Source of the DNA: Dehalococcoidia bacterium
Lineage (GTDB): Bacteria > Chloroflexota > Dehalococcoidia > UBA6926
Direction of reading: 5' to 3'
NCBI GenBank assembly: GCA_034422835.1
Contig: DAOUJJ010000013.1
Location: 12,618-76,617, forward strand
Length of the DNA stretch: 64,000 bases
Shown one piece after another: positions 11,121 to 46,498 of the stretch. The notes under the pieces are model-generated. The model searched no databases and had not been told where the DNA came from. It saw only the letters and a list, made by a program, of their open reading frames with translations. Both the position numbers and the translations under genes were made by a program. Position 1 is the first letter of the stretch. Each line of letters begins with the position of its first letter.

Positions 11121-11184
11121 CCGCTCATCCTGAGCCTGTCGAAAGGCCGCTCACCTGTCATTCCGGCGAAGGCCGGAATCCACC
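11121..11184. repeat. Palindromic repeat cluster (family 1 CTGAGCCTGTCGAAAGGC + family 2 GTCATTCCGGCGAAGGCCGGAATCC)
   Basis: Matches six other loci in the window. Hairpin-forming. Confidence 0.8.
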
Positions 11185-11292
11185 GCATGACGCGCAGCGT
11201 CACAGCATACCCCCGTGACACCCCCCGCCAACGTGCCCTACAATCTAATTCCCGTACTGACTCACCCAACCACTGAGAGGATTACCAAAACC

Positions 11293-11685
11293 ATGAACCA
11301 AGTGGACTTCTACCGACACAAGCTCGCCTACGAGACGGACTCGGCAGACCTCTTCGAGTCCCTCCAGAACGATGAACCGATCGTCGTAGTAGACGGCCGC
11401 GCCCACTTCGCGTATGGAGAGGAGCACATCCCCGGCGCGATAAACCTGCCTCACCGGGAGATCAACGCCGAGTCCACCGCATCCTTGGACAAGTCGAGGA
11501 CATACGTCTGCTACTGCGACGGTATCGGTTGCAACGCCTCCACCAAGACGGCACTAAAGCTGGCTGAATTGGGGTTCGAGGTACGTGAGCTCATCGGCGG
11601 CCTGGTCTGGTGGCGGCGCGACGGCTACGCCACCCACGGCACCGGCGCCACCGCAGACGACCCCAACATCCGCTGCGCCTGCTGA
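11293..11685 (+). CDS. Rhodanese-like single-domain sulfurtransferase
   Basis: Active-site loop CYCDGIGCN. The track ORF starts earlier (11215) but that N-terminus is repeat-encoded; the start is taken at MNQVDFY. Confidence 0.6.
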   Translation: MNQVDFYRHKLAYETDSADLFESLQNDEPIVVVDGRAHFAYGEEHIPGAINLPHREINAESTASLDKSRTYVCYCDGIGCNASTKTALKLAELGFEVRELIGGLVWWRRDGYATHGTGATADDPNIRCAC

Positions 11686-11693
11686 CTCCCCCC

Positions 11694-12371
11694 CTAAACC
11701 CTCACCTGCTCCACCTCACCACCCAGCACCACGTCTAGCACCTCCAGGATGGCCAGGGTCGGCACGCGGTCCCCGATGTCCAGGCCGACGTATCCCCACA
11801 CCACCCCGCCGTCCGGGAGGATGACGAACGTCGCAGGAGCGGCCACGCCGTCCCCCAGCAGGTTGAATACGCCGTAGCTCGTCGACACGTCCTCGTTCGT
11901 GTCCGCTAAAACGGGGAATTCCGCCCCGGCCAGCACCTCCATCCGCTCCGCATCGACCAGTAAGTCAGTGCTGATCGCCGCCAGACCGACGTTTCGGCTC
12001 TCAAACTCAACGTAGAAGCTCTGCAACTCGACCAGTTGCTGCTGGCAGATGCCTCAACCGTAACTACGGTAGAAGACAATCACGAGCGCCTCTCGCCCCG
12101 CGAGCAGATCATCCAGTGTGTACCGCTCGCCCGTCCCCGTTGGCAGTGAGAAATCCGGTGCTTGCGGCGCCTCAGGCTCAGGAGTCTCCGTTGGAACCGC
12201 GGTGGCCGTGGGCAAAGGCGTGTCCGTGGCAGACGGCGTTGGGGTGAACGAGGGTTCAGGAGTGGGAGCGGCTGTTGGCGTTTCCCCTGAGCAGCCGGCG
12301 ATGATGACGGCAATTGTCGCTAAAATGGCAACAAATAGCGTTGGCGGATGTCCCGGAAAAAATTTCCTCAC
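11694..12371 (-). CDS. Candidate selenoprotein: TlpA/ResA-like thiol:disulfide oxidoreductase lipoprotein with UxxC motif (in-frame TGA at 12054-12056)
   Basis: Track ORFs 12054..12371 and 11694..12026 are in the same frame, separated only by TGA. Read-through gives …VIVFYRSYG-U-GICQQQLVEL…, which aligns to the WCAPC redox motif of the TlpA paralogue at 39905..40603. Lipobox IIAGCS plus T/P-rich linker. SECIS-like hairpin 15-31 nt downstream. Confidence 0.6.
12023..12044 (-). ncRNA. SECIS-like stem-loop downstream of the in-frame UGA
   Basis: mRNA reads …UGA GGCAUCUGCCAG CAACU-GGUCG-AGUUG CAGAGC. A 5-6 bp stem with GGUCG apical loop (GU in loop) begins ~15 nt after the UGA. Confidence 0.35.
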
Positions 12372-12430
12372 ACGTCAATTGTACGGACTGCTCGTTCCCG
12401 GGGTGGTAAATCGCGGGCGTGCACTGCCCC

Positions 12431-12466
12431 CAAAAACCGTAGAGGCGCGTTCCACAACGCGCCCCT
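12431..12466 (-). terminator. Rho-independent terminator downstream of rplT
   Basis: Minus strand: AGGGGCGCGTT-gtgg-AACGCGCCTCT followed by ACGGTTTTTG. Confidence 0.6.
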
Positions 12467-12491
12467 TGCGAACCGGTGTCAAATGAGTGGC

Positions 12492-12866
12492 TTACGCCGC
12501 AGCCTTCTCCGCCGCCAGCGCCTCTTTAGCTGCCTCCGCGATGCGGGCAAAGGCCTGCGGGTCGCGAACGGCCAGATCGGCCAGCATCTTGCGGTCGACG
12601 GCCACGTTCGCCAGCTTGAGGCCGTGGATCAGGTTCCCGTACGTAATGTCGTTCTGCCGGGCCGCGGCGTTGATCCGCGTAATCCACAGTCGCCGAAAGT
12701 CGCCCTTGCGCTCACGCCTGTGCTCGTAGGCGTACTGCCAGGAGTGCAGCAGGGACTCTTGCGCCCGGCGAAACAGCTTGTGCCGGGAGCCCCATTGCCC
12801 CTTCATCAGGTTGATGACTTCCTTGTGGCGGCGGCGCGTTCGCGGCCCGCCCTTGATTCGGGTCAT
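12492..12866 (-). CDS. rplT: 50S ribosomal protein L20
   Basis: Strongly conserved L20 sequence (MTRIKGGPRTRRRHKEV…). Confidence 0.95.
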   Translation of the reverse strand: MTRIKGGPRTRRRHKEVINLMKGQWGSRHKLFRRAQESLLHSWQYAYEHRRERKGDFRRLWITRINAAARQNDITYGNLIHGLKLANVAVDRKMLADLAVRDPQAFARIAEAAKEALAAEKAAA

Positions 12867-12908
12867 GTCAGTGATCCTCTCTACAGATACTGAAAACGAG
12901 AATGCGGC

Positions 12909-13115
12909 CTATGGGCCGTACGGCAGCAGCCGCTGCACGCGACGCCGATCCGCCGGACTCAGCGGCATCTCGTCGCCATACAGGCGCTTGACGTCCTTCG
13001 GCTTGCGGCGACGCAGGTGACTCTGATGCCCCTTGCGCTTTGTCAGCTTGCCGGAGCCGGTCATGCCGATCCGTTTCTGAGTGCCCTTGTGCGTCTTGAG
13101 CTTGTACTTTGCCAT
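12909..13115 (-). CDS. rpmI: 50S ribosomal protein L35
   Basis: MAKYKLKTHKGTQKRI…; classical infC-rpmI-rplT order. Confidence 0.95.
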   Translation of the reverse strand: MAKYKLKTHKGTQKRIGMTGSGKLTKRKGHQSHLRRRKPKDVKRLYGDEMPLSPADRRRVQRLLPYGP

Positions 13116-13158
13116 GGTGATTCCTGTCCCCGCGCCTCTAACCGGTCTAATTCGTCTG

Positions 13159-13761
13159 TTAGTCGGGTGATCCCGCAGCCGCAGCCGCCTCCTCGACCTT
13201 TTCCTCGGCCGCCGGAGTCTCAGTTGTCTGCTTTGGCGATGCGGCGTTCTTGCGCTTCAGAGGGGCCAGGATCATGCTCATGCCCCGTCCCTCCAATTGC
13301 GGCGCCGTGTCGATGCCCGCTATGTCCTCCACTTGCTCTGATACCTTCTTGAGCAGATTGATCGCCAACTCGGGGTGCGTCGCCTCCCGGCCTCTGAAGA
13401 TGACCGAGACCTTGACCTTGTCCCCACCCTCAATCAGCTTGCGTACCGTCCTCGTCTTGAAGTCGATATCATGCTGACCGATCTTGGGGCGGAGCCGCAC
13501 CTCGCCGAGTTCCTGCGTGTGCTGTCCCTTGCGGAGCTCCCGCTCCTTCTTGGACTGCTCGTAGCGATACCGACCGTAATCGAGGATACGGCACACAGGG
13601 GGCTGGGCGCCCGGGGCAACCTCAACCAGGTCAAGGCCCCGATCCTGCGCCAGCTGAATGGCGTCTGCCGTTTGCATCACTCCAACTCGCTCACCGTCGT
13701 CGGCCACCACAAGGACTTCCGGCACGGTTATGCGTTGGTTGACGCGGTAATCTCTCGGTAT
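13159..13761 (-). CDS. infC: Translation initiation factor IF-3; probable non-canonical ATA start (track ORF begins at GTG 13725)
   Basis: IF3 sequence. In-frame upstream extension …I-P-R-D-Y-R-V-N-Q-R-I-T-VPEV matches the conserved IF3 N-terminus. ATA lies 5 nt downstream of SD GAGGGAG. infC genes classically use AUU/AUA. Confidence 0.8.
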   Translation of the reverse strand: MPRDYRVNQRITVPEVLVVADDGERVGVMQTADAIQLAQDRGLDLVEVAPGAQPPVCRILDYGRYRYEQSKKERELRKGQHTQELGEVRLRPKIGQHDIDFKTRTVRKLIEGGDKVKVSVIFRGREATHPELAINLLKKVSEQVEDIAGIDTAPQLEGRGMSMILAPLKRKNAASPKQTTETPAAEEKVEEAAAAAGSPD

Positions 13762-13873
13762 GTCTACTCCCTCGCTGTGTAGCTATCAGCCGTATTGCTC
13801 AAGCACGTACTCTACAATCCGCCTATTTACCCCGTCAAGAATGACTAAACCGCCAATCCCTCCATCCCTTCCG

Positions 13874-13903
13874 TTCGCCCTGAGCCTGTCGAAGGGCCGC
13901 GCC
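13874..13903. repeat. Palindromic repeat, family 1 (CCCTGAGCCTGTCGAAGGGCCGCGCCC)
   Basis: Abuts the stop codon of the fused CaiB gene. Confidence 0.8.
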
Positions 13904-16315
13904 CTACCTCAGCACCCCGCTCTCCGTGCCCTCCTTAATCTCCTCCTCGGACAGCCCAAGTACTGAACTGTACACATACTCATTATCCTCGCCGATCCAT
14001 GGCGCGCGGTTGGCCGCGGTTGCCTTGGACAGCGAGGGAATCGCCGGCAGCCCGTGGTGCGAGAGCGTTCCCCATGTCGAGTGCGTCGATTGCACGATGT
14101 GTCCACGTTCTCGCAAATGCGGATCGTGGTACAGGTCCTCGCTGTTCATCGCCACGCCCGCCGGCACCCCGACCTTCTGCAGCATGTTAAGAAGCTGGTG
14201 CGAGGTGAACGCCTGCGCCCACTCACTTATCTCATGGTCGATTTCGTCCCGATTCGCCCGACGGCCCGCTGCATCTGCGAATCGGGGATCGTCCGCCCAG
14301 TGCGGCGCTCCCATCGCCTGTGCCAGCGCGCGCCATTGCTCGTCCGTCTCGCACGCGATGACGATCCACGTGTCCGGGTACAGGCACGCATACGCCCCGT
14401 ACGGCGCGTAGTGGGCATTTATCGGCTCGTTATAGCCGACGCTGCCCCAGATGTTCCCGTTAATCGTGTAGTCCAGGATGGCCGGACCCATCATCGAGCC
14501 CTGGCCGTCCACCTGCGCGATTTCGATGAACTGCCCGCGGCCCGTCACGTCGCGGTACTCCAGCGCAGCGGCGGTGGAGAGCGCCACAAATGCGGCGCCC
14601 ACGTAGTCCGGTATCACGCCCTTCGCATGGTTCTGCATCGGCGAGTCCGGGTGCCCCCACAGCAAGGACAGTCCCGTCACCGCCTGCAGGTTGTTCCCGT
14701 ACGTCACCCAGTTGTTCAGTGGCCCCTCGGAACCCATCCCCGGCATACCGATCTGGATGACCCCCGGGTTGATCTTCGTCAGGTCGTCGTAGCCAAGACC
14801 GAGCCGCTTCATGACCGTCGCGCTGAAGTTATCGACGACAACATCGCTGTCCTTGACCAGTTGGCGGAAAAGGTCCTTGCCGCCATCGGAACGCAAATCG
14901 AGGGTGCAGCTCAGCTTATTGCGGTTCATATCGGGGAACAGCGGGCGCGTCGGCTCACGGTTGGCCTCAAGGCTTTCGGACTCCACCTTGATGACCTCCG
15001 CGCCATAGAAGCCGAGGAACATCGTCCCGATCGGTCCCGCGAATGCCCGCGTGATGTCTGCCACGCGAATGCCGTCCAACAGCGCGTCGTCGGGCGCTTT
15101 GCCGTTCGTCGGCGCAGGGTACGTGTCACGCCGCGGCGCAACCGAATCAATCTCGGCCAGCACCTCATCGCGATGCTGGTCCAGCAGCGGGGCAGGGCGC
15201 GTCTGGTTCCACGGCGTGGCTGACATGATGAACGGCTGTCCCGGCGTTTCATACTCGCCCACGACAGGATGCGTCACCTTCTGGAACCAGCCCCGCGACC
15301 GCATATGGTCGTCCGTTACAAAATCCTCGAACGTGTTGACGGGACAGCAGGCCAGCCCCAGCCGCTGCGCTTCCTCCACGAACTCATCGCGGTCGAACTG
15401 CTCAACGAACGACTGTATGAGGATCTGCGCCAGGTCCTCATTGTCCGTCCGGTACTGGGACGAGTCCCAGTCATCGCCGGACAGCACCGCGTCCTCCATC
15501 CACTGTCGGGACAGAACGCGCCAATGCCCGGTCATGAAGATCGCGATCTGGACGTACTTGTCATCCTTCGTCCGATAGATATTCGCGGGGCCGCCGCGCG
15601 GCCCCTGGCGCAACACGATCTCGCTCCGCTGGCTGTAGCGCGCAATCGTCCCGACCGTCGCGAACGTCAGCGCCTCTTGCAATGAGAGGTCGATGCGCTG
15701 GCCGAGCCCTGTCGCCCGCCGATGCCGTACGGCGTTGATCGCCAGGTACGCGCCATGAACTGCCGCAAGCTGCGCCCCGATCTGGCACGGCAGCACGACG
15801 GGCGCGCGCTCGTCGTCGCCCTGGCTCATCATCACGCCGGACATGGCCGAAATCACCGCCTCATTCGCTGTGAACGCGCTGTGCGGTCCCGTCTGCCCGA
15901 ACGGCGTGAGCGAAACCGTCACAAGGCCGGAGTTCAACTCCTCAAGACGCGCATCATCAATACCAAGTGAGGCCAACTGCCCCGGGGGAGTGCATTCGAC
16001 AAAGATATCCGCCCGCTCGATGAGCTTCTCAAGGGTCTCCCGGCCGCCGGAGTCCTCAACGTCAAGAACGATGCTGCGACGATTCAGATTGGCGTTGAGA
16101 AAAGGAATGCTGCGCTCGACATCCGCGATGTCGCCCGCGAACGGCGCGTGCATCCGATTCGGATCGCCCCCCGGCGGCTCCACCTTGATAACGTCCGCGC
16201 CGAGCCCGGCAAGGTACCCCGCGCAATACGCCGCGGGAATCTCCCCAATCTCAACAACCCGCAAATGCCCAAGCGCCGTATCCGCCCCACCATTAGTCAT
16301 AGCCACACTCCCCAC
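13904..16315 (-). CDS. Tandem-fused CoA-transferase family III protein (two CaiB/BaiF domains in one 803-aa chain)
   Basis: Two repeats of the CaiB signature (…VVEIGE…AGYLAGLGADVIKVE…; …IRVADIT…GFYGAEVIKVE…). Confidence 0.8.
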   Translation of the reverse strand: MGSVAMTNGGADTALGHLRVVEIGEIPAAYCAGYLAGLGADVIKVEPPGGDPNRMHAPFAGDIADVERSIPFLNANLNRRSIVLDVEDSGGRETLEKLIERADIFVECTPPGQLASLGIDDARLEELNSGLVTVSLTPFGQTGPHSAFTANEAVISAMSGVMMSQGDDERAPVVLPCQIGAQLAAVHGAYLAINAVRHRRATGLGQRIDLSLQEALTFATVGTIARYSQRSEIVLRQGPRGGPANIYRTKDDKYVQIAIFMTGHWRVLSRQWMEDAVLSGDDWDSSQYRTDNEDLAQILIQSFVEQFDRDEFVEEAQRLGLACCPVNTFEDFVTDDHMRSRGWFQKVTHPVVGEYETPGQPFIMSATPWNQTRPAPLLDQHRDEVLAEIDSVAPRRDTYPAPTNGKAPDDALLDGIRVADITRAFAGPIGTMFLGFYGAEVIKVESESLEANREPTRPLFPDMNRNKLSCTLDLRSDGGKDLFRQLVKDSDVVVDNFSATVMKRLGLGYDDLTKINPGVIQIGMPGMGSEGPLNNWVTYGNNLQAVTGLSLLWGHPDSPMQNHAKGVIPDYVGAAFVALSTAAALEYRDVTGRGQFIEIAQVDGQGSMMGPAILDYTINGNIWGSVGYNEPINAHYAPYGAYACLYPDTWIVIACETDEQWRALAQAMGAPHWADDPRFADAAGRRANRDEIDHEISEWAQAFTSHQLLNMLQKVGVPAGVAMNSEDLYHDPHLRERGHIVQSTHSTWGTLSHHGLPAIPSLSKATAANRAPWIGEDNEYVYSSVLGLSEEEIKEGTESGVLR

Positions 16316-16330
16316 CGATTAGGCGCATTC

Positions 16331-16457
16331 GTCATTCTCGTGCTTGACACGGGAATCCAGAACACCCTCCCCCAATCTGCGAGTACGATAGGCGTCACAC
16401 GTTGGCGGGTCAAGGATGAGACACCCCCCATTCACCCTGAGCCTGTCGAAGGGCCCC
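16331..16457. repeat. Palindromic repeat cluster (family 3 GTCATTCTCGTGCTTGACACGGGAATCCAGAAC; family 1 TTCACCCTGAGCCTGTCGAAGGGCCCC)
   Basis: Lies between the CaiB fusion and vapB. Confidence 0.8.
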
Positions 16458-16531
16458 ATTGCCCAACCATTCCCCCGTCGTTATAGTCCAAAGGGTAGAC
16501 ACCAAACGAACCGTCTACCCTGAGGTACCCA

Positions 16532-16825
16532 ATGAGCCTGAACATCAAGAACGAAGAGACCTGCCGACTCGCCGAAGAACTCGCCACGCTGACCAAGGAG
16601 AACAAGACGCAGGCAATCACCATCGCCCTGCGTGAGCGCCTCAAGCGGGAACGGGAGCGGCTTACGGAATTTGACCGATCCCTGGAAGGTTGGCTTCGCT
16701 GGAAAGAGGAACGACGCAAGAAGACTGCCGACATGCACCGCCGGCTTGCGCCGCATCTGCGCCCCACCTCATCCTCACAGGAGCTTCTCGACTCTCTCTA
16801 TGGCGAGCACGGCGAACCGAAGTGA
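16532..16825 (+). CDS. vapB: Type II antitoxin VapB (COG4423-like)
   Basis: MSLNIKNEETCRLAEELATLTKENKTQAITIALRERL… Stop overlaps the GTG of the downstream PIN gene. Confidence 0.7.
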   Translation: MSLNIKNEETCRLAEELATLTKENKTQAITIALRERLKRERERLTEFDRSLEGWLRWKEERRKKTADMHRRLAPHLRPTSSSQELLDSLYGEHGEPK

Positions 16826-17208
16826 TCGTCGATTCATCTGCAGTCTGCGCCATCCTGCTGAGAGAGACTGATGGCCCCTATTTTGAAGAAGCGCTATTCC
16901 GTGTGGACGGTCTCCGTATGTCTGCGTTCAATGTTCTTGAATCCGCCATCGTGTTGGAAAGTCGGCTGGGCCCGGCAGGCGGCACAGAATTCGATGCATT
17001 CCTTCAGCGCGAATCCATCGAAATCGTCCCGGTGACGCCTGAACAGGTCACCGTTGCCCGCCGCGCTTGGCGAGAATTCGGCAAAGGCAACCACCCCGCC
17101 GCCCTCAACCTCGGCGACTGCCTCGCCTACGCCCTCTCCCAAATGACCCGCGAACCCCTCCTCTACAAAGGCGCAGACTTCGAGCAGACGGACGTACGCC
17201 CCGCCTAA
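16822..17208 (+). CDS. vapC: PIN-domain toxin VapC
   Basis: VIVDSSAV… with conserved acidic residues of the PIN fold. GTGA overlap with vapB. The track ORF 16690..17208 extends upstream only because no stop intervenes. Confidence 0.7.
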   Translation: MIVDSSAVCAILLRETDGPYFEEALFRVDGLRMSAFNVLESAIVLESRLGPAGGTEFDAFLQRESIEIVPVTPEQVTVARRAWREFGKGNHPAALNLGDCLAYALSQMTREPLLYKGADFEQTDVRPA

Positions 17209-17356
17209 CCGCTCACCCTGAGCTTGTCGAAGGGCTCCGCCCGTCATTCCCACGAAAGCGGGAATCCAGAACTCCCTTCCCCGGTGGGGGGGGAGAGTCA
17301 GGGTGAGGGGTAAGCGCCCCACCCATGTCATTCCGAGCGCAGCCGAGGAATCTAAA
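17209..17356. repeat. Palindromic repeat cluster (family 1, family 2 GTCATTCCCACGAAAGCGGGAATCCAGAAC, family 4 GTCATTCCGAGCGCAGCCGAGGAATCTAAA)
   Basis: Starts directly after the vapC stop. A GGGGGG…CCCC palindrome lies between the units. Confidence 0.8.
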
Positions 17357-17419
17357 TTGTCCACCAGCAAATCAACTGCAGGAGCGGCTCATTTGTAACT
17401 CCAATAATTCCAACGAGCT

Positions 17420-19138
17420 TTACTCTTCGCCGCTACAGAGCTTGATTGCCTCCCTATGGATTGCTTCGGCGCGAGCGTGTATGAATGATTCATAGTCGGA
17501 TTTGATCTTCGCACCCCGTGCCTCTTCATCAGCTATTTCTGAATACCCCCCAACGCTTAGACTGTCGAACGGTATGATGTGTGTTTCTAATCGGCTACGA
17601 ATTTGATCCTCACCAAGAGGTGCACGTTCGGCACGCTCCCGCAGATAGGCCAACGGCTCTTTGGCGGAAATTCTCCGGTTGGTGTTCCATGTGATTAGGG
17701 CACAATTCAGAGCGAGACTGATATCGCCCTCATCGATCAAACCCACATTGTCAAGTAGGGCTTCCGGGAATAGATGATGGTATTCCCTTCTAGCAAGCGA
17801 ATCAGGAGTGGCTGGCGAGTCATCGGCAAAATCTCTGCCTCCAGCTCGTATAGAGACAGCCAGTATCGCCCGAGCCAAGGTACTGCGGAGTCGTGGCCAT
17901 GGAGCCCGTTCCAGTTCCTCAATCTCGGCAATCGGGAATCTGTCGTTGTCCAGTATCGGAATCAAGGCATCAGATTCTCCATCTACAAGCCTGGCCTTTA
18001 GACCACGATGATCTTGGAGTGCAGCAGTAGCGGCCGCGCGGTCGTATCTGTCTGTAAAGAAGGAGCGCCACAAGTATTGACGCAATAGCAAACGCGCTTC
18101 GCCGTGAGCATCTAGGGATTGTGGCATCTGACTCCAGATTGAGGCGATTATCGGCACCACAGCTACCGTAGGCAGACGATCACGGTCGTAAATGTGTTCC
18201 TCACTCAGAAACCTGATCGCGCCCCCGACACCTCTTTCAATCGATTCCCATTCTCTGGAAAGCCGCCGCATGTCCAACTGTAAAAAGGAGGCTTCCGTGG
18301 GGGGCCGGTTTTCTCTGAGAGCAGCAACTCGGAGAACAAGATCCGAGATATTGACATATCGCTCGGCCTCTGGAACGGCTGAACGCAGAGACCCTTCAAG
18401 TTCGTGTAGGGATTGTCCTGTTGCCGCCTCCATTTGGGCTACGACAATATCAAATGCAGATAGGCGGACAGAAGTTGTATTCATCTTGATGAACACATCA
18501 ATTGCTTCTCCAGGAGGCGTGCCCACTGGCAATTCTAGGTAGGGTAGATTCGCCTCCCTAAGGGCGTTTCGGTGTATTGCCAATTCTCGTTCTAGGGAGC
18601 GACTTTCTTCGACAGAACCCGTAGCTAGGTCGCACCAAGTGCCAATTTCGGTAGAATCAACTGCCGGACTAAGAATACGTATTGGTACTAGTCCTCGTCT
18701 CCGCTGTTCCTGAGGCTGATCGGCCCACAGAGGGTACCTCTGGCCCCCTCTGTGCCACCTGCCATAACTTCTAACTAACGATGGATCGTCCGCATCAGGA
18801 CGTAGCACAGCGAAATAGGTTCGATTCGCGTAACCGTCGTTGAGTGCCTTCCATATCGCTGTCAATCGTTGTTGGCCGTCCAGCAGGTTCTCAGTTGTGC
18901 GTTCTGTTTGGGGAGGAGCCCCCGCTATAGTGCGGCTTATAAACGGCTGTTTATCTCCTATAGCAAGTACCAGGGCGGCACCGATTGGCCGACCACGCAG
19001 GATGGTGTCTAGGAGTGTTTCGACATCGCCATGTCCCCAACTTTCCAGCCTTTGAAACCTTGGGAGCGTTAGTTGTCCAGTTCGAACGCGCCCTAGCCAG
19101 TCGGGAAGTCGCCGATTTCTAGCTTCCATTGACATTGT
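17420..19138 (-). CDS. GmrSD-family type IV (modification-dependent) restriction endonuclease, DUF262 + DUF1524
   Basis: DUF262 motif DGQQRLTA. C-terminal His-Me/HNH-like DUF1524 motifs (EYHHLFP…HIIP). Start taken at MSMEARNRR, preceded on the mRNA by GGAAGC with ~6-nt spacing; it overlaps the thrS 3' end by ~20 nt. A/T-richer than the flanks. Confidence 0.75.
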   Translation of the reverse strand, partial: TMSMEARNRRLPDWLGRVRTGQLTLPRFQRLESWGHGDVETLLDTILRGRPIGAALVLAIGDKQPFISRTIAGAPPQTERTTENLLDGQQRLTAIWKALNDGYANRTYFAVLRPDADDPSLVRSYGRWHRGGQRYPLWADQPQEQRRRGLVPIRILSPAVDSTEIGTWCDLATGSVEESRSLERELAIHRNALREANLPYLELPVGTPPGEAIDVFIKMNTTSVRLSAFDIVVAQMEAATGQSLHELEGSLRSAVPEAERYVNISDLVLRVAALRENRPPTEASFLQLDMRRLSREWESIERGVGGAIRFLSEEHIYDRDRLPTVAVVPIIASIWSQMPQSLDAHGEARLLLRQYLWRSFFTDRYDRAAATAALQDHRGLKARLVDGESDALIPILDNDRFPIAEIEELERAPWPRLRSTLARAILAVSIRAGGRDFADDSPATPDSLARREYHHLFPEALLDNVGLIDEGDISLALNCALITWNTNRRISAKEPLAYLRERAERAPLGEDQIRSRLETHIIPFDSLSVGGYSEIADEEARGAKIKSDYESFIHARAEAIHREAIKLCSGEE

Positions 19139-20921
19139 CTGACCCCCTCCCCGCCATCTCCTCCAGCACCCGCTCCATGAACTCCCCAACGGGCATCGCG
19201 CCCAGATTCTCGCTGTTCTCACGGCGACGCACAGCCACCGCACCCGACTCCGCCTCGCGGTCGCCAACGACCAGCATGTAGGGCACGTGCCTGGTCTGCG
19301 CCTCACGGATCTTCGCGTTCATACGCTCATTGCGGTCATCAATCTCAACGCGCAGCCCGACGGCGTGCAGCTGCTCCTGCACCTGCTGCGCGTAAGGGAT
19401 ATGCCGGTCTGCAATAGGGATAAGCGTCGCCTGCACCGGCGCGAGCCACACCGGGAACGCCCCCGCGTTGTGCTCCAACAGCACACCCAAAAACCGCTCC
19501 AGCGAGCCGAGGATCGCGCGATGGATCAGCACTGGCCGCTCGCGCGTGTTGTCCTCCGTCACGTATTCAAGGTCGAACCGCTCCGGCAGATTGAAGTCCA
19601 GCTGGAACGTGCTCAACTGCCACTCCCGCCGCAGCGCGTCCTGCGAGAACAGGTCGATTTTCGGCCCGTAGAACGCGCCCTCATTGGGTATCTCCTCAAA
19701 GTCGACGTCGGCAAGCGTTAGCGCCTCGCGAAGCGCCTGCTCAGCCTGATCCCAGACCTCATCGCTCCCCACGCGTTTCTCCGGTCGCAGCGACAGCGTA
19801 TAACGCGGCTCGTTCAGACCGAATGCCTGGTACACGTCCCGCATCATGCGGATCAGCGACGAGAATTCGTCCTGTATTTGGTCGAGTCGGCAGAAGATGT
19901 GGGCGTCGTCCTGCGAGAAGCTCCGTACGCGCGTCAACCCGTGTGTGACGCCGGAGCGTTCATTGCGATGCAGCCGCCCAAAGTCCGCCATACGCAACGG
20001 CAGCGCGCGGTATGAGTGCAGCTGGGATTGGTACACGATGCAGTGGCCGGGGCAGTTCATCGGCTTGACCCCGTACTCGATCTCATCCGACTGCGTCAGG
20101 TACATATTCTCCAGGTAGTTGTCGTAATGCCCCGACTGTTTCCAGAGGTCCGTCAAGAATATCTGCGGCGTGATGACCTCTTGGTAGCCGTACTTGTCGT
20201 ACAACTCCCGGATGAAATCGACCATCAGGTTGTAGACCGTCGCGCCCTTTGGCAGGAAGAACGGGCTGGCTGGCGCGATCGGGTCGAAGAAGAACAGGTC
20301 AAGCTCGCGCCCTAGCCGGCGGTGGTCCCGCCGCTCCGCCTCCGCCAACCGCTCCAGGTGCGCGTCAAGCTCCTCTTGTGTTTCGAACAGCGCCCCGTAG
20401 ATGCGCTGCAGCTGCGGATTGCTCTCATCGCCGCGCCAATACGCTCCGGCCACCCGCGTCAGCGTGAACGCCCCCGTCTTGTCCGTCGACTCCGCGTGCG
20501 GCCCCTGGCACAGATCCGTGAACTCGCGATGACTGTAGATGGAAACCGTGTCGTCCGTCAGGCTCTCGATGATCTCCACCTTGAAAGGCTGATCCGCGAA
20601 CCGCGCAAGTCCCTCGTCGCGCGGCATCTCACTCGCGACGAACGGCGCAGCAGACTTGGCGCTCTCCCGCATCCGCGCCTCGATCTCCGGCAGATCGTCC
20701 GTGGATAGCGTGCGCGGCAGCAGGAAGTCGTAGTAGAAACCGTCCTCGATGGGCGGCCCGATGCCCAGCTTCGCCTCGGGGAACATGGACAGCACGGCCT
20801 CCGCCATCATGTGCGCCGCGGAATGCCGCATCCGGATGAGCGTGTCGTTCTCGCCTGCGTAGCGCTCCTCAAGCGCGCTTCCGTCCGCGAGTGATTCTGC
20901 TTCGTGTTCCTGGTGTGACAT
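19119..20921 (-). CDS. thrS: Threonyl-tRNA synthetase
   Basis: ThrRS editing and class II catalytic motifs (HRHSAAHM…, FRLHRNERSG…). Confidence 0.9.
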   Translation of the reverse strand: MSHQEHEAESLADGSALEERYAGENDTLIRMRHSAAHMMAEAVLSMFPEAKLGIGPPIEDGFYYDFLLPRTLSTDDLPEIEARMRESAKSAAPFVASEMPRDEGLARFADQPFKVEIIESLTDDTVSIYSHREFTDLCQGPHAESTDKTGAFTLTRVAGAYWRGDESNPQLQRIYGALFETQEELDAHLERLAEAERRDHRRLGRELDLFFFDPIAPASPFFLPKGATVYNLMVDFIRELYDKYGYQEVITPQIFLTDLWKQSGHYDNYLENMYLTQSDEIEYGVKPMNCPGHCIVYQSQLHSYRALPLRMADFGRLHRNERSGVTHGLTRVRSFSQDDAHIFCRLDQIQDEFSSLIRMMRDVYQAFGLNEPRYTLSLRPEKRVGSDEVWDQAEQALREALTLADVDFEEIPNEGAFYGPKIDLFSQDALRREWQLSTFQLDFNLPERFDLEYVTEDNTRERPVLIHRAILGSLERFLGVLLEHNAGAFPVWLAPVQATLIPIADRHIPYAQQVQEQLHAVGLRVEIDDRNERMNAKIREAQTRHVPYMLVVGDREAESGAVAVRRRENSENLGAMPVGEFMERVLEEMAGRGSDNVNGS

Positions 20922-21012
20922 GCGACTTCATATCTCCTTGAGCTACTCCTATCTATAATGACGGTTGACGCGCCAAGCGTGAAAGAGGCGATTCGAGAAA
21001 GGCAGGGCCGAG

Positions 21013-21249
21013 ATGGACAAGTTAGGCTCTATGACAACGGACTGGTCACAGTGCCCGCAGGTGGAGCGGGTTCAAGGCAGGTACAGTGGTGCGTTGACGT
21101 TCCGCAACTCGCGAATGCCTGTGGAAAGCCTTATTTCAAACCTCGCTAGCGGGGCCACCGTGGAGCAATGGGCAGAGTGGTACGGGGGTGATCTTGACAT
21201 GGCCCGCGCCATTCTGGAGTTCCTTGCGGAAGATATGAGCCAGGCATGA
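21013..21249 (+). CDS. DUF433 domain protein (antitoxin-like), orphan
   Basis: DUF433 pattern (…QGRYSGALTFRNSRMPVESLISNLASGATVEQWAEWY…). Stop overlaps the start of the M42 peptidase (ATGA). Confidence 0.55.
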   Translation: MDKLGSMTTDWSQCPQVERVQGRYSGALTFRNSRMPVESLISNLASGATVEQWAEWYGGDLDMARAILEFLAEDMSQA

Positions 21250-22358: not shown

Positions 22359-22366
22359 CCCCCCCC

Positions 22367-22514
22367 CGCTCACCCTGAGCCTGTCGAAGGGCACCCTCCG
22401 TCATTCCCGCCCCTCTCCCGTCATTCCCGCGCAGGCGGGAATCTGAATCGTATTGTGCAGCCCAACCCCGTAACGCCATTCCTGTCATTCTGAGCGCAGC
22501 CGAGGAATCTAAAG
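22367..22514. repeat. Palindromic repeat cluster (family 1, family 2 GTCATTCCCGCGCAGGCGGGAATC, family 4 GTCATTCTGAGCGCAGCCGAGGAATCTAAAG)
   Basis: Directly downstream of the M42 peptidase stop. Confidence 0.8.
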
Positions 22515-22656
22515 ACTCCGGTTCGCCAGGCAACTCTTGTTATTCGAGGGTTGCGCGTCCGCACGGACTCTCTACACTGGTGCCCATGAGAGCCTTGCCC
22601 AACCTCTTCGACGTGATGGCCATATACGCCCTGTATCAGGGCAGGTGACGGATACG

Positions 22657-29599: not shown

Positions 29600-29629
29600 T
29601 TGACAACACTTGCAAATCTCCCCTAAACT
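29600..29629 (+). promoter_or_regulatory. Near-consensus sigma70-type promoter (TTGACA-18-TAAACT) for the giant surface-protein gene
   Basis: TTGACA at 29600-29605 and TAAACT at 29624-29629. Gives a ~370-nt structured leader before the GTG at 30001. Confidence 0.45.
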
Positions 29630-40603: not shown

Positions 40604-40674
40604 CTATGATTATACCTGCTTGTCTCTACAGGCCCTACGAACATTTGCCCGTTTTGTGCCATAGTGTAAGTGTC

Positions 40675-43512
40675 ATGTCGGGCCAGCAGCAGAGCGAACA
40701 GGAAACCACGCGCGAGGAGGTCTTTAATACTGACCTCGCGAACATGCTGCGGGACTTAAGCCTTCTTGATGCACGCCCTGAGCGAAGACGCGGACAGTCT
40801 GCACCGGATATTGCTGTTCACTTGCATGATGGCGAACGCATTATCGTGGAATGCAAGTGGGAATCCGCCGCAAGAGATTTGGATGATCAGCTTGCGCGTC
40901 GATTAGATAGCTTTCCAGAACTGCTGGCGGTGGTTGGCGTGCTGTATCCGGATCGTCTGCAATCAACCGCTGACGCGCGTGCTGATTTGGCGTCAGAAAG
41001 TGAATTGCGCTGGTTTCTGTACGGTTCTCGCGGAGTGGCAGTTGACGCGCGAACGACTTTTACGGGCTCAATAGAGGATCTGGGCAAGTACATAAGGACT
41101 CTACCACTTAGCCTCGAAGGAGCCGACCGAGTCGATGCTGCGGCAGGCTCAATCAGGTATGCAGTTGAGAGAGCATCGGGAATGGTTCATGACAGACACG
41201 CACGCATCGGGGAGCGAATTGCGGCAATCATCGCCGAGTCGGACAACGAAAAAGATCGGCTTGCCGCATTGAGAATCGGTTGCTTGGTGATATTCAATGC
41301 AATGGCCTTTCAAGATCGACTTTCCCCACGCAATAGCCAAGTGCCGACCCTACAAGAGGCCTTAGAGGGCGGAATTCAAGGGCTTGAGAACTCGTGGCGT
41401 ACAGTGCGAGAGTCCATCAACTATGTGCCGGTTTTTGAGTTGGCAGAGCAAGTCCTCGGTGTCTTGAGAACGGCCCCCACGGACCTCTGGCGTCCCGTAC
41501 TGCAATACCTTGCGGATGCAGTCGATGAAACTCGCAATCTCGAAGGACATGACCTCTCTGGCCGTCTCTTTCACACGCTCTTGAGTGAAGCCAAGTATAC
41601 CGGCGCGTACTACACTTCGGTCCCTGCTGCCACTATGCTGGCGCAGCTTGTCTTTGATGGTTGGCCGCCAAGAGTCGACTGGAAAGACCATGAATTCCCA
41701 GCTTCGCTTAGTGTCGCTGATATAGCCTGCGGCACCGGCACCCTGCTAATGGCCGTGGCGTCTGAGGCTCAAAGGAAACATGAGGAAGCCGGAGGCAATA
41801 GGATTGCTGAGCTTCACAAGGCAATGGTTGAGCAGGCGCTGCACGGCTATGACGTCCAGCTTTCTGCTATTCACTTTGCCGCAACAAGTCTTGCCATGCT
41901 GAACCCTGAAATCCAATTTGACCGTATGCGACTTTGGGTGATGCCTCACGGAGTCGAGGGGGATCGCGTTTCCCTTGGTTCCCTTGAATTCCTCGCATCG
42001 GAAGAGGCGGCTGTACAACATGCTTTGTCCCCTGAGAGCCTGGGTGTTGGTGAACGCGCGGCTGAGCGAGTATCGGGCGAAGGCCGGCGCAGTACCGAAG
42101 ATGGTGAGACTGCCCGATTACCGGACTTGGATCTAGCCATCATGAATCCCCCCTTCACTCGGTCAGTCGGAGGAAATCTATTGTTTGGCAGCCTACCTGC
42201 AAGCGAACGCCGCGCTATGCAGAGCGATCTTTCTCGCCGTCTGAGTTCACGTCTGGCGTCTGCAACCGCGGGGCTTGGTCCCGCTTTTGTCGCCACTGCT
42301 GCCCGTCGACTGCGTCTTGGCGAAGGGCGGCTCGCCCTGGTCCTGCCCTCAACTGTGGCTACCGGCCCATCATGGACGCAGACCCGCGCCTTGATTGAGC
42401 AAGATTTTCACTTGGATATGCTGATTACATCCCATGATCCGCAGCGATGGAACTTCTCTGATAGCACGGATCTGTCCGAGGCACTATTGATTGCGACACG
42501 ACGAGGTGAGGACGATAAGACTGAAGAATCGTCAACCCAATTCGTGAATCTTTGGCGCAATCCTGACAACGTGTTTGACGCGGAGAGAATGGCGCGTGCC
42601 ATATCAGTTGCTCAGCCCGCTGATTTGAATGGAACAGGAACGGCATTGCTCCGTTTGGACGGTAGGGACGTCGGCGAAGTCGTATCGGCGCCGCAAGCCT
42701 CTTTCGCACGGGACAAGTGGCCGGGTGGCCAGTTCGCGCGTGCCGACCTCACACGCAGTGCGATGCGCCTGCTCAGAAACAACGAAGCCTGGATGCCGGG
42801 CGGCGACTCAGCGCAACTCCCTATGTGCAGATTGGATGAGGTCGGACAACTTGGCCCGGATGTGCGTGATGTTCGCGACGGATTTGAATATACCGATGCC
42901 GTAACAGCATATCCGATGGTGTCTGGCCATCAGGCCCATCTACGAACCAGACTTGTCTGTGAGCCGGACCGGTACTTGGCCCCATTGGTCGCGGCCCGTG
43001 AAGGACGACGGCTGAAACCTCTCAACCTTTTGTGGCCACGGGCTGGCCAACTACTCTTGGCAGAGAGACTCTGGCTCAATACAACTCGCGTGGTGGGTAT
43101 GTACTGTACAGAGCGTGTTCTCTCTAATGTCTGGTGGCCTATACGAAATGGCGATTCACGACGGGATAGAGCACTTTGTGCCTACTTCAACAGCACTGTA
43201 GGAATCTTGGGTCTAATGGCAACGCGAAATACGACACGGGCAGGCTGGGTCAAACTCAAGAAAGCTGACCTTCAGCGCCTCCCTGTTCTGGATGTCCGCG
43301 CCCTCTCGGAAGAACAGCTTGACGCCCTCGCAGAGCTATTCGATGAAGTTTCGGAGATGGAGTTCATGCGCCTGCCTGAAATGGCTGATGACCCCGCGCG
43401 CAAGGCGCTTGATGACGGCCTCTCACGTATCCTCAACCTCCCTGACCTCGCCCCTCTCCGCCGCCTCATCGCCACTGAACCTGTCGTATCTAATCAGCGC
43501 CTAGGTTCGTAA
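40675..43512 (+). CDS. Single-chain type IIG/IIL-like restriction-modification enzyme (N-terminal PD-ExK-like nuclease + gamma-class N6-adenine MTase + TRD)
   Basis: PD-x15-ECK near the N-terminus. MTase motif X GAYYTS, motif I DIACGTGTLL, motif IV NPPF. ~300-aa C-terminal putative TRD. No partner genes adjacent. A/T-richer. Confidence 0.5.
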   Translation: MSGQQQSEQETTREEVFNTDLANMLRDLSLLDARPERRRGQSAPDIAVHLHDGERIIVECKWESAARDLDDQLARRLDSFPELLAVVGVLYPDRLQSTADARADLASESELRWFLYGSRGVAVDARTTFTGSIEDLGKYIRTLPLSLEGADRVDAAAGSIRYAVERASGMVHDRHARIGERIAAIIAESDNEKDRLAALRIGCLVIFNAMAFQDRLSPRNSQVPTLQEALEGGIQGLENSWRTVRESINYVPVFELAEQVLGVLRTAPTDLWRPVLQYLADAVDETRNLEGHDLSGRLFHTLLSEAKYTGAYYTSVPAATMLAQLVFDGWPPRVDWKDHEFPASLSVADIACGTGTLLMAVASEAQRKHEEAGGNRIAELHKAMVEQALHGYDVQLSAIHFAATSLAMLNPEIQFDRMRLWVMPHGVEGDRVSLGSLEFLASEEAAVQHALSPESLGVGERAAERVSGEGRRSTEDGETARLPDLDLAIMNPPFTRSVGGNLLFGSLPASERRAMQSDLSRRLSSRLASATAGLGPAFVATAARRLRLGEGRLALVLPSTVATGPSWTQTRALIEQDFHLDMLITSHDPQRWNFSDSTDLSEALLIATRRGEDDKTEESSTQFVNLWRNPDNVFDAERMARAISVAQPADLNGTGTALLRLDGRDVGEVVSAPQASFARDKWPGGQFARADLTRSAMRLLRNNEAWMPGGDSAQLPMCRLDEVGQLGPDVRDVRDGFEYTDAVTAYPMVSGHQAHLRTRLVCEPDRYLAPLVAAREGRRLKPLNLLWPRAGQLLLAERLWLNTTRVVGMYCTERVLSNVWWPIRNGDSRRDRALCAYFNSTVGILGLMATRNTTRAGWVKLKKADLQRLPVLDVRALSEEQLDALAELFDEVSEMEFMRLPEMADDPARKALDDGLSRILNLPDLAPLRRLIATEPVVSNQRLGS

Positions 43513-43633: not shown

Positions 43634-44851
43634 ATGTTCATGCCGCTTGAGGGTGTCCGCATCATTGATCTGACCCATTACACCGCCGGGCCGTACGCCA
43701 CGCGAATCCTCGGCGACTACGGCGCAGATGTCATCAAGATCGAAAGGCCGGGCGGGGGCGATCCCGCGCGACGCATCGGCCCCTTTTTCCATGATGAGCC
43801 CGACCTCGAAAAGAGCGGCCTCTTCCTGTTCCTCAACACCAACAAGCGCTCCGTCACCCTTGATATCAAGACCGAGAAGGGCAAGCAGATCATCAAGGAG
43901 CTCGTCAAGGAGGCGGATATCCTCATCGAGAACTTCCCGCCCGACGTCATGCCGAACGCCGGCCTGGGCTACGAGGAACTCAGCCAGATCAACCCCCAAC
44001 TCGTCATGACCTCCATCAGCAACTTCGGCAAGACCGGCCCCTACAAGGACTGGGTTGGACTTGATCTGACCCTCTATGCGATGGGCGGCAATATGTGGGG
44101 TTCCGGCGATCCCGAGTTGGAGCCGCTCAAGACCGCCGGCCGCATGGCCAGCTTCCACGTCGGCTATGCCGCCGCCCTCGCCACCGCTCTCGGCCTCACC
44201 AACGCCGAGTTACGAGGGCAGGGCGAGAACATCGACGTCAGCTATTTCGAGGTCACGCTGCAATCCATTGATGGCCGTATGCAGAAGCTGCTCGGCTACC
44301 AGTACAACAACCAGGTGCCGATGCGCGTCTCTCCGGGCGCCAGCCTTGGCCTCGGCAGCGGTGTCTACCCCTGCCTGGACGGCATGTTCATGACGACGGC
44401 CGGCGCGGCGCAGTTCCCCAACATGGCCCGCATGGTTGGCGCGGAGGACATCCTCACGCAGCCCGGTTGGGACACCGTCGCCGCCCGCTCCCGCCCGGAG
44501 GCCGCCGAAGAGTGGGAGGCCACCCTCATCCCCTGGATGCTGGAGCGCACCACCAAGGAGGTGCAGCGCGCCTGCATGGAGCACGGTGTGCTCGGCGGGC
44601 CCCTCAATACCATTGAGAACCTCATGAACGATGAGGACTTTGACGCGCGCGGCTTCTGGCAGACCATCGACCACCCCGCCACCGGCCCGCTCACCTACCC
44701 CGGCTTCAACTCCCGAATCCACTTCGACGACGGCGAGCGTCCCGCCCGACGCCGCGCTCCACTGCTTGGAGAGCACACCGCCGAGGTCCTCAAGGAGATC
44801 GGTATCGAGGGCGAGGAGGTCTCACTTCTCCGCTCTGAGGGCGTCATCTAG
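43634..44851 (+). CDS. CoA-transferase family III (CaiB/BaiF)
   Basis: VRIIDLTHYTAGPYATRILGDYGADVIKIE…. Confidence 0.85.
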   Translation: MFMPLEGVRIIDLTHYTAGPYATRILGDYGADVIKIERPGGGDPARRIGPFFHDEPDLEKSGLFLFLNTNKRSVTLDIKTEKGKQIIKELVKEADILIENFPPDVMPNAGLGYEELSQINPQLVMTSISNFGKTGPYKDWVGLDLTLYAMGGNMWGSGDPELEPLKTAGRMASFHVGYAAALATALGLTNAELRGQGENIDVSYFEVTLQSIDGRMQKLLGYQYNNQVPMRVSPGASLGLGSGVYPCLDGMFMTTAGAAQFPNMARMVGAEDILTQPGWDTVAARSRPEAAEEWEATLIPWMLERTTKEVQRACMEHGVLGGPLNTIENLMNDEDFDARGFWQTIDHPATGPLTYPGFNSRIHFDDGERPARRRAPLLGEHTAEVLKEIGIEGEEVSLLRSEGVI

Positions 44852-44895
44852 CCCCCTGAAACGTGAAGAGACGCCAAAGCTAAAGGAGCATAACA

Positions 44896-46248
44896 ATGAC
44901 TGCCACAGAGAACAATCGCCGAGATATGAGCGCCTCACCCGTCCCCGGCACGGGCAAGCTGCCCCTTGAGGGTCTCCGCATCTTGGACATCACCGTGGTG
45001 TGGGCCGGGCCGTACGGCACCATGCACCTGGCCGACTGGGGTGCGGAGGTCATCCGCATCGAGTCCATCAAGCACTTTGCCACCAGCACGCGCGGGCAGA
45101 TGGCGCGCCCGCCCATTGAATTCGTGCGTCTCCGCAACACCGGCATGGGCTATGTCGATGACGACCCCGGCGAGCGCCCCTGGAACCGCCAAGCCATCTT
45201 CAACACGCATTCCCGCAACAAGCTCTCCGTCACCATGGATCTCGCCTCTCCCGAAGGTCAGGAAGCCCTTGAGAGACTCGTCGCGCAGGCCGACGGTTTC
45301 CTGGAGAACAACGTCGCCATCTCCATGGAGCGGTTCGGCATCACGTGGGAGCGCCTCTCCGCCATCAACCCGCGCCTCATCATGGTGCGGATGCCCGCAT
45401 TCGGCATCGAGGGCCCGTACAAGAACTACCGCACGTGGGGCAACCACATGGAGGCGCTGGCCGGCCATCCGTACCTGCGCGCCTACCCGGACGAGGACCC
45501 TGCCCGCGGCCCCAGCGGCGTCCCCAGCGACGCGGCGGGCGGCGTCGGCGGCGCGCTCGCGTTCATCATGGGTCTGCGCCATCGCAACAAGACCGGCAAG
45601 GGCATCCTCATCGAGGCGCCCACCGCCGAGAACTTTGTCCCGTTCCTTGGCGATTTCGTCATGGACTACTCCATGAACGGCCGCGTCTATACCCAGCTCG
45701 GCAACGGCCATCTTTTCCTCGCCCCGCACAACGTCTACCGCTGCGCCGGTGAGGAACGCTGGCTCACAATCGCCTGCCGCTCGGACGCGGAGTTCCGCAC
45801 GCTCTGCCAGATCATGGGAGAGCCGAATCTTGCCGACGATCCCAGATTCGCTGACAGCCTCAGCCGCTATCAGAATCGCCGCGCGCTCGATGAGGTGATC
45901 TCACGTTGGACGGTTGAGCAGGACGCGAAGGAGACCATGCACCGACTACAGGCCGCCGGCGTGCCCGCCGGCATGGTGATGGACGAGGCCGATGTCCACG
46001 CGGACCCGCAGGTCGCGGAGCGCAACTTCTTCCAGGAGGTCACGCATCCGGAGGCGGGAACCCACAAGAACCCGACGACGGGCTTCAAGCTCCAGAACAC
46101 GCCCTATGAGATCCGCCGCCACGCCGTGCTGCTTGGCCAGGACAACGAATACGTCTACAAGAACGTCATGGGCTACTCAGACGAGGAGTACCAGAAGTTC
46201 ATCGACATGGGCCATGTCGGCATGGACTACGACCCGGACGTGCAGTAG
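44896..46248 (+). CDS. CoA-transferase family III (CaiB/BaiF)
   Basis: LRILDITVVWAGPYGTMHLADWGAEVIRIE…. Confidence 0.85.
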   Translation: MTATENNRRDMSASPVPGTGKLPLEGLRILDITVVWAGPYGTMHLADWGAEVIRIESIKHFATSTRGQMARPPIEFVRLRNTGMGYVDDDPGERPWNRQAIFNTHSRNKLSVTMDLASPEGQEALERLVAQADGFLENNVAISMERFGITWERLSAINPRLIMVRMPAFGIEGPYKNYRTWGNHMEALAGHPYLRAYPDEDPARGPSGVPSDAAGGVGGALAFIMGLRHRNKTGKGILIEAPTAENFVPFLGDFVMDYSMNGRVYTQLGNGHLFLAPHNVYRCAGEERWLTIACRSDAEFRTLCQIMGEPNLADDPRFADSLSRYQNRRALDEVISRWTVEQDAKETMHRLQAAGVPAGMVMDEADVHADPQVAERNFFQEVTHPEAGTHKNPTTGFKLQNTPYEIRRHAVLLGQDNEYVYKNVMGYSDEEYQKFIDMGHVGMDYDPDVQ

Positions 46249-46263
46249 CGAGGACGGCCCGCT

Positions 46264-46498
46264 GTCATTCTGAGCGGAGCGCAGCGGAGTCGAAGAATCT
46301 AAAGCCTCAAATGCGCCGCCAAACCCCCTCCCCACCGTGAGGGAGGGCAAGGTGGGGGGCACATCCGCTCATCCTGAGCCTGTCGAATGACGTGAGCCCA
46401 TCCGTCATTCCCGCGAAAGCGGGAATCCAGAGCCGTCGATAGGGCGGACTCCTCATTAATTCCGAGTGAAGCGCAACAGGATTGAGGAATCTAAGCAC
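46264..46498. repeat. Largest palindromic repeat cluster (family 4 variant, CCCCTCCCCACCGTGAGGGAGGG palindrome, family 1, family 2 GTCATTCCCGCGAAAGCGGGAATCCAGAG, family 4/5 TTCCGAGTGAAGCGCAACAGGATTGAGGAATCTAAG)
   Basis: Five hairpin units within 235 bp, immediately after the CaiB stop. Confidence 0.8.

Follow-up and report, generated by a model that had tools for sequence, protein, structure and literature searches.

Short repeats of a Dehalococcoidia genome as probable solo copies of hairpin modules that bracket small GIY-YIG nuclease genes

The pairing of a short hairpin repeat with a small nuclease gene was first described in 2025 in Neisseria, where it takes the architecture NTS-ssnA-NTS (Chenal et al., Nat Commun 2025; PMC11893778). 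The ssn genes belong to the cd10448 group of GIY-YIG genes and are typically flanked by their motif, which was defined as the NTS, CGTCATTCCCGCGMAVGCGGGAATCYRG, together with a degenerate pattern for Ssn-related motifs (SRM), HGTCWYN(0-2)YYVSBRHN(0-5)WNVSBRGN(0-2)RNCYNB. Binding of the hairpin by SsnA requires single-stranded DNA and is limited to one orientation; the enzyme cuts a few nucleotides upstream, does not bind RNA, and modulates transformation in Neisseria (PMC11893778). Hairpins of a comparable build form the CGTC-tagged superfamily of repetitive extragenic palindromes (REPs), which includes Neisseria dRS3 and the Rickettsia palindromic elements RPE-4 and RPE-6 and has copies in repair and RNA-binding genes (PMC3733652). 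Here, we analysed a stretch of 64,000 nucleotides from a Dehalococcoidia bacterium (Chloroflexota, UBA6926; contig DAOUJJ010000013.1, positions 12,618 to 76,617; hereafter the window), part of a 192,839-bp metagenome scaffold, which carries short repeats of five families, F1 to F5. These repeats are probably orphan (solo) copies of modules that elsewhere bracket small single-domain GIY-YIG nuclease genes.

As the initial annotation had proposed, the window holds REP-like repeats of several families that are clustered in intergenic spacers, often right after stop codons, and units were found at all seven of its loci, far above chance. Pattern searches of the window returned 7 copies of the F1 core CCTGAGCCTGTCGAAGGGC with up to three mismatches (0.03 expected), 9 copies of the GTCATTCY..GRAATC shell (0.11 expected), 11 of ATTCC..GGAAT (1.49 expected), and 4 of the published SRM pattern (0.82 expected). 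The four families listed in that annotation are all present; a fifth, G/C-rich family, F5 (17274-17320 and 46326-46362), and an F2-type copy within the rho gene, recovered by repeat finding at 27078-27107, had been missed. Finding the same families in independently assembled relatives rules out an assembly artefact, which was named there as a possible refutation. The closest homologues of the window proteins are annotated as Chloroflexota or Dehalococcoidia metagenome-assembled genomes, and Chloroflexota is a new host group for repeats of the SRM/NTS kind.

Every unit of every family lies on the + strand, irrespective of the direction of the neighbouring genes. This co-orientation holds across nine loci and ~55 kb, with two further + units ~4 kb past the end of the window (L219, 16073-16174). 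The GC skew is negative across the whole window. Replication-strand bias was considered as the cause of the common orientation and rejected, as F1 orientation showed no relation to local GC skew at 70 loci from other genomes (32 versus 38, p = 0.55).

Judged by their sequence, F2 and F3 fit Ssn-related motifs and, equally, CGTC-tagged REPs with the Neisseria dRS3 core. F2 reads CGTC, ATTCCCGC, GAAA, GCGGGAAT and CCA in succession, and both families share the anatomy of the CGTC REPs. In that superfamily, an unpaired head of CGTC or TGTC precedes a stem of 8-9 bp that begins with AT, a loop of 4-5 nt, and a tail close to CCA; F2 and F3 have CGTC as the head, stems of 8 or 9 bp beginning with AT, loops of 4 or 5 nt, and CCA as the tail. 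F4 keeps the head and the outer stem, but has a 12-nt loop. The SRM pattern is matched by the units at 11156, 16330, 35751, and 46403, the last of which (46403-46430) is an exact NTS, and exact 20-mers of the F2 core appear in Neisseria papers; the pattern is not matched by the units at 17242, 22419, and 27078. Further likenesses to the CGTC REPs (PMC3733652) are the presence of several families in one genome and the intragenic copies in DNA-repair and RNA-binding proteins. The published elements are mostly head-to-head dimers and rarely clustered, whereas the window has no inverted pair and mixed-family clusters are the rule. The likeness to the Ssn/NTS system lies in oriented hairpins with a CGTC head, in the order repeat-gene-repeat in relatives and metagenome homologues, and in repeats clustered around genes.

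As single-stranded DNA, F2 and F3 fold at -9.0 kcal/mol (z -4.3) and -9.6 kcal/mol (z -4.5), whereas no significant fold was obtained for the F1 (z -0.08), F4 (z +0.6 to +1.1), and F5 (z -0.5) units of the window. The earlier description of all families as hairpin-forming therefore holds for F2 and F3 and not for the F1, F4, and F5 units of the window, although F1 has a covarying 4-bp stem across genomes, as described below. A search of Rfam gave no family at the gathering score for any unit, only weak matches to FtrB and whalefall-1. The weak, sub-gathering matches to FtrB (RF02748, a Francisella small RNA) overlap F2/F3 hairpins at 16334-16356 and 46387-46464; the RF02748 model may itself contain an SRM-like hairpin.

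The link between such repeats and GIY-YIG genes, already published for the CGTC/SRM families (Chenal et al. 2025), is found again close to this genome. Our comparison set comprised six syntenic loci from relatives (L122-L127). In L123, an Ssn-like GIY-YIG gene lies between direct F3 copies, inside a 63-bp duplication; in L127, another lies between inverted F4 ends; and in L124, a gene of the UPF0213 type lies between F1 hairpins, with its stop codon inside an F1 unit. The duplications are unusually long: the L123 cassette (17245-17712) is bounded by the 63-bp direct duplication, which contains F3, and a cassette in L124 (11146-11868) by a direct duplication of ~50 bp from the 3' end of AlkZ, which surrounds an F2. 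For an independent sample, 80 metagenome loci were picked by the GIY-YIG protein alone. An outward-facing GTC hairpin stood ~38 nt upstream of the match in 52 of 75 loci and ~25 nt downstream in 58 of 79, against ~0.11 expected per search window, and the arms were more alike within one cassette (identity 0.82) than between loci (0.65).

The pairing is family-specific. We propose that a second GIY-YIG subfamily, UPF0213 (BH0048-like, Slx1-related), would have F1 as its corresponding module, with a covarying stem, a common loop, and F1 copies bracketing genes of this type. Among 87 F1 units, not selected by the exact 18-mer used below, the inner three stem pairs (CG, GC, TA) are Watson-Crick in 80-83% of units versus 34-46% expected, and positions beyond the inner stem pair at about chance; the F1 unit is therefore a 4-bp stem closing an 11-nt loop, GAGCYTGTCGA. 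F1 loops were present in the flanks of 5 of 5 independent UPF0213-type genes, and none, bar one weak match, was found around ~60 Ssn-type genes. At least 22 of 45 family proteins end in read-through tails encoded by F1, such as PSTSSGRTE, FDKLRTN, and PELVEG. A profile of the F1-bracketed genes matched the PDB entries 1zg2 (4.8e-23) and 1ywl (5.1e-19), while the Ssn-type profile matched 1zg2 only at 1.2e-5; the two profiles are homologous and distinct (hhalign probability 99.1%, 30% identity). In a structure model of an F1-bracketed protein (mean predicted local distance difference test score, pLDDT, 88), the nearest structures were UPF0213 proteins, followed by Slx1. UPF0213/YhbQ/COG2827 proteins (1zg2, 1ywl; relatives of Slx1), to which the F1-flanked genes belong by this profile match, have been treated as putative UvrC-like repair nucleases (PMC1839093), and a cognate repeat is missing from the published descriptions that we found. 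Likewise, literature searches for F1 strings, F1 peptides, or UPF0213 turned up no account of a linked repeat.

At least 120 stretches of species-representative genomes contain the exact F1 18-mer, and the matches listed span Actinomycetota, Cyanobacteria, Chloroflexota, four classes of Proteobacteria, Bacteroidota, Acidobacteriota, Planctomycetota, and the candidate phyla radiation. In those other genomes, F1 is frequently a full hairpin or arranged in inverted pairs. A GIY-YIG gene was near 2 of 120 loci chosen by F1 among the matches listed, which fits many solo copies per gene and alone gives no association; it is when sampling starts from the gene instead of from F1 that the association is seen. 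Many database entries of the UPF0213 type (P0253-P0354) carry N- or C-terminal extensions translated from F1, and many lie on contigs of less than 1.5 kb, as would follow from assemblies broken at repeats. NCBIfam has no specific model for UPF0213-type proteins, and a scan of viral contigs for UPF0213 relatives returned none.

Comparison with the relatives further revealed that the units turn over rapidly and at specific sites, including in-frame copies within genes. The locus at 35513-35781, taken in the initial annotation for a boundary cluster, is not intergenic, because its F1 and F3 units lie in frame and antisense inside a gene for an AlkZ-like DNA glycosylase (35428-36582, - strand). 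The two units are 200 nt apart, both on the + strand: F1 at 35512-35538 encodes residues 349-360, ALRQAQGDRTGG, and the F3/SRM unit at 35751-35781 encodes residues 267-278, ALDSRVKHGNDG. The AlkZ-like gene is intact by its full-length match to PF06224. Peptides derived from the repeats occur in 12 of 18 members of its AlkZ clade, at three hot spots, whereas 0 of 7 outgroup proteins carry them. When the protein was modelled with AlphaFold (pLDDT 87.5), both occupied sites fell in the blocks of lowest confidence (65 and 66). The slot occupied by F3 in the window (site A) holds F2b, F4, or F5 in three relatives, at similar length and between nearly invariant flanks.

A second example is provided by rho (26863-28650, + strand, 595 aa), which carries an F2b-type unit in frame in its N-terminal region (27078-27107, + strand; peptide PYSGESRNPS). 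Three genomes share 94-95% identity in Rho, and two N-terminal module sites account for nearly all of the differences. At the first (R1), either the native sequence or F1 is present, 33 nt in place of 42 nt; the second (R2) holds F2b in the window, F1 in L122, and F5 in L124. F5, with peptides such as PSPLPEGEG and SPSMGEGRGGGE, was seen in the same in-frame hot spots of the L124 rho and AlkZ-like genes. Outside genes, the F1 of locus 2 (13871-13897, + strand), beside the stop codon of the CaiB fusion gene (13904), represents a clean ~34-nt insertion that three relatives lack, and the spacer between GmrSD and vapC that holds locus 4 measures only ~10 bp in L125. These sites are insertion hot spots, as orthologous spacers and protein loops hold other families or none, and the units turn over as cassettes because the same rho and AlkZ-like sites hold different families in close relatives. 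Like the RPEs and the Wolbachia protein-coding palindromes, the in-frame copies in the intact AlkZ-like gene and in Rho are short palindromes within functional genes that map to loops. They differ in that the same codon positions hold different families in genomes with Rho 94-95% identical, and in that some events swap native sequence of like length instead of adding to it. The in-frame units of rho and the AlkZ-like gene, and the exchange of one family for another at fixed positions, likewise set this locus apart from the Ssn/NTS system.

If the repeats are orphan copies of nuclease-bracketing modules, F2 and F3, as Ssn-related motifs, would be bound single-stranded and in one orientation, with the cut a few nucleotides upstream. 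F4 would be a divergent long-loop variant of the same kind, corresponding to the inverted ends of the Ssn-like gene in L127. The modules would accumulate where they are tolerated, immediately downstream of stop codons, in spacers, and in protein loops that are disordered or at the surface, and would be exchanged like cassettes at hot spots. Single-strand breaks made by the nuclease at a resident module may be repaired by copying another module of the genome, in which case the nucleases would drive the spread of the repeats. The 50-63-bp duplications around cassettes are a misfit with ordinary transposition, and, together with the replacement signatures and the hydrolytic chemistry of GIY-YIG enzymes, they suggest break-triggered copying and disfavour cut-and-paste.

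Several points weigh against this explanation. GIY-YIG enzymes hydrolyse DNA; to our knowledge they are not known as transposases, and no mobilisation step by GIY-YIG nucleases has been shown here or in the literature. The window and 10 kb on either side (~82 kb) contain no GIY-YIG gene, nor was a UPF0213 gene seen nearby. Any partner in this genome is therefore only putative, and no partner gene was detected for F5. The lack of an ssn gene within ~82 kb and the single orientation of all units are also differences from the Ssn/NTS system, and a uniform + orientation over ~55 kb is outside the predictions of the model. Several of the events are replacements of native sequence and no simple insertions, and F1, F4, and F5 fail the published SRM pattern. 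Finally, Bertels and Rainey link the same Neisseria 21-mer to a Group 2 REP-associated tyrosine transposase (RAYT).

This last link leads to a different explanation, in which the repeats are REPs or REPINs (REP doublets) mobilised by a RAYT of the IS200/IS605 type, as in Pseudomonas, E. coli, and, per Bertels and Rainey, Neisseria. The 21-mer ATTCCCGCGCAGGCGGGAATC, whose 20-nt core lies at 22423-22442, is the Neisseria REP tied to the Group 2 RAYT, and REP-like hairpins with a conserved unpaired head are RAYT targets. The units of the window are nevertheless co-oriented, and the inverted pairs that define REPINs were never seen there. The hairpins bracket GIY-YIG genes and not Y1 transposase genes, Di Nocera et al. 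(PMC3733652) associated no transposase with the CGTC REPs, and an IS200-like gene was undetected in the window, its flanks, and ~200 fetched loci, although this was a weak test. What is shared with REPIN-RAYT systems and the E. coli bacterial interspersed mosaic elements is the set of many short hairpins, a rare nuclease gene, possibly domesticated, with the hairpins on its own flanks, and the mosaic clusters. The partner here would, in contrast, be a GIY-YIG hydrolase of ~95 aa instead of an HUH tyrosine transposase, and inverted doublets are lacking. On balance, we regard mobilisation by a RAYT as improbable.

A role mainly at the RNA level, as terminators or as 3'-end stabilisers selected at gene ends, had also been suggested in the initial annotation. 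Five clusters do begin within 16 nt of a stop codon, REPs stabilise upstream mRNA in other bacteria, and the G-T wobble pairs of the stems occur on the + strand. However, the units keep to the + strand whichever way transcription runs: those of loci 1 and 5 and of rho are in sense, and those of locus 2 and of the AlkZ-like gene in antisense. Three units are intragenic, and one cluster is placed between divergent genes. No unit of any family is followed by a T-run, and a terminator scan of 11000-23000 gave no call on a unit, with none of 10 terminator-like sites coinciding with one. SsnA does not bind RNA (PMC11893778), and F1, F4, and F5 do not fold. The terminator role was thus not borne out, and we judge an RNA-level function as a whole to be as improbable as the RAYT model.

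The view that the repeats are recombination scars at the borders of horizontally acquired modules is very unlikely and already largely refuted by synteny: although the genes downstream of the CaiB pair, where the window has a repeat cluster, differ in 4 of 4 genomes, and although GIY-YIG cassettes, hicAB, and an insertion sequence (IS) all lie in the spacer between a 1415-aa gene and rho, the GmrSD-vapBC-CaiB fusion block is syntenic in L125-L127, the junctions of the hicAB and 968-aa-gene indels are free of repeats, and the flanking genes are mostly housekeeping genes (initiation factor IF3, threonyl-tRNA synthetase ThrRS, CTP synthase, Rho, phosphoenolpyruvate (PEP) carboxylase). The conserved block extends from ThrRS through GmrSD, vapBC, and the CaiB fusion to IF3, L35, and L20 in these three relatives, and was therefore not recently acquired. 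Of the earlier proposal of hot spots at the boundaries of acquired modules, the insertion hot spots remain and the acquired modules do not. The label of miniature inverted-repeat transposable elements was also abandoned, as each unit is one hairpin or half-hairpin (27-45 nt) that lacks terminal inverted repeats, with no target-site duplication at the one clean insertion (F1 of locus 2).

The hicAB pair, with a small ORF, occupies 28743-29709 between the 1415-aa gene and rho and is missing in L122 and L124. In L123 and L127 this spacer is occupied by GIY-YIG cassettes, and L127 also has an rve-family IS there; it is shared by unrelated mobile genes and is therefore a hot spot. The 968-aa gene (40606-43512), which has no Pfam match and repeat-free borders, is present in the window and L122 and not in L123 or L124.

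Along the window, the gene map drawn from Pfam matches places the intergenic clusters as follows, with all units on the + strand. Locus 1, between a DUF1801 gene and a rhodanese gene, consists of an F1 (11121-11147) that begins 2 nt past the DUF1801 stop (11119) and an F2b, TGTCATTCCGGCGAAGGCCGGAATCCAC (11156-11183), which fits the published SRM pattern. IF3 and the CaiB fusion gene follow; locus 2 adjoins the stop of the fusion gene and locus 3 its start. Locus 3, in the spacer from which the CaiB fusion and vapB diverge, comprises an F3 with a 9-bp stem and a 5-nt loop (16330-16360), one of the SRM matches, and an F1 (16428-16454). Next to vapBC, locus 4 opens with an F1 (17209-17235) 1 nt after the vapC stop (17208), followed by an NTS-like F2 with one stem mismatch (17242-17269), the F5a unit (17274-17320), and an F4 (17326-17356) with an ATTC/GAAT shell and the 12-nt loop GAGCGCAGCCGA. 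The claim that units abut stop codons thus stands at DUF1801, at vapC, and at the CaiB fusion. Beyond GmrSD and ThrRS, locus 5 starts 8 nt past the stop of an M42 peptidase gene with an F1 (22366-22392), continues with a truncated F2 head and a complete F2 (22399-22446), whose 20-nt core is that of Neisseria dRS3, ATTCCCGCGCAGGCGGGAAT, and ends with an F4 (22483-22513). DUF6174, PEP carboxylase, CTP synthase, Rho, MeaB, and the AlkZ-like gene come next. Finally, locus 7 follows the CaiB pair and holds a long F4 variant (46263-46304) 15 nt past a CaiB stop, the F5b unit (46326-46362), an F1 with a degenerate 3' end (46365-46391), the exact NTS (46403-46430), and a degenerate long F4-like unit (46455-46498). 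Some of the ORFs that had been called spurious products of the repeats can be regarded as such, for example 10331-11269 on the - strand, which has no Pfam match, whereas the peptides LDSRVKHGNDG, ALRQAQGDRTG, and PYSGESRNPS belong to the real AlkZ-like and Rho proteins.

Other features of the region were noted in passing. The DUF6174 gene (22537-23190) lies upstream of PEP carboxylase in the window and between CTP synthase and PEP carboxylase in L122 (20080-20974), and a mixed repeat cluster stands immediately upstream of it in both. A defence island spans 4-4925 and the upstream sequence (L218, 1-10000) and has no F-family repeats within it. It includes a cyclic-oligonucleotide-based antiphage signalling system (CBASS) at 4-1357, with a CD-NTase C-terminal domain and Cap15, and a 1164-aa RNase_H_2/AAA helicase at 1431-4925; just upstream of the window are a type I restriction-modification system (HsdR/M/S), a TIR-domain protein, hicB, and a PIN gene. 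Tandem paralogues with 73-88% DNA identity (families D1-D3 and D6-D12), among them four consecutive SBP_bac_5 solute-binding genes, occupy 49064-50866, 53336-55315, and 60684-64000 and are unrelated to the repeats.

Beyond the published work that we found are the F1/UPF0213 family, the co-oriented mixed clusters, and the exchange of cassettes in rho and the AlkZ-like gene; Chenal et al. 2025 (PMC11893778) make no mention of UPF0213, Chloroflexota, or intragenic copies. A broader reading, which we put forward tentatively and at somewhat less than even likelihood, is that UPF0213/YhbQ-type nucleases and F1 form a second pan-bacterial nuclease-hairpin pair beside Ssn/NTS, and that F1, SRM, F4, and F5 are interchangeable cassettes that overwrite each other and native codons at fixed hot spots, including in the essential rho gene.

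In annotated genomes, the repeats explain a large number of spurious ORFs and odd protein tails, with peptides such as LDSRLRGNDG, ALRQAQGER, and PSTSSGRTE. The data also suggest UPF0213 as a second nuclease family with a candidate single-stranded DNA recognition sequence of its own, which is relevant to the single-stranded DNA tools proposed for Ssn. The origin and spread of these abundant repeats were left open by the 2025 Ssn paper and by earlier REP work, and the window and its relatives offer natural before-and-after pairs, in the form of empty and filled sites and family swaps, that constrain the mechanism. If the broader reading is true, it would point to nuclease-triggered copy-repair, and not transposition, as the route by which they spread.

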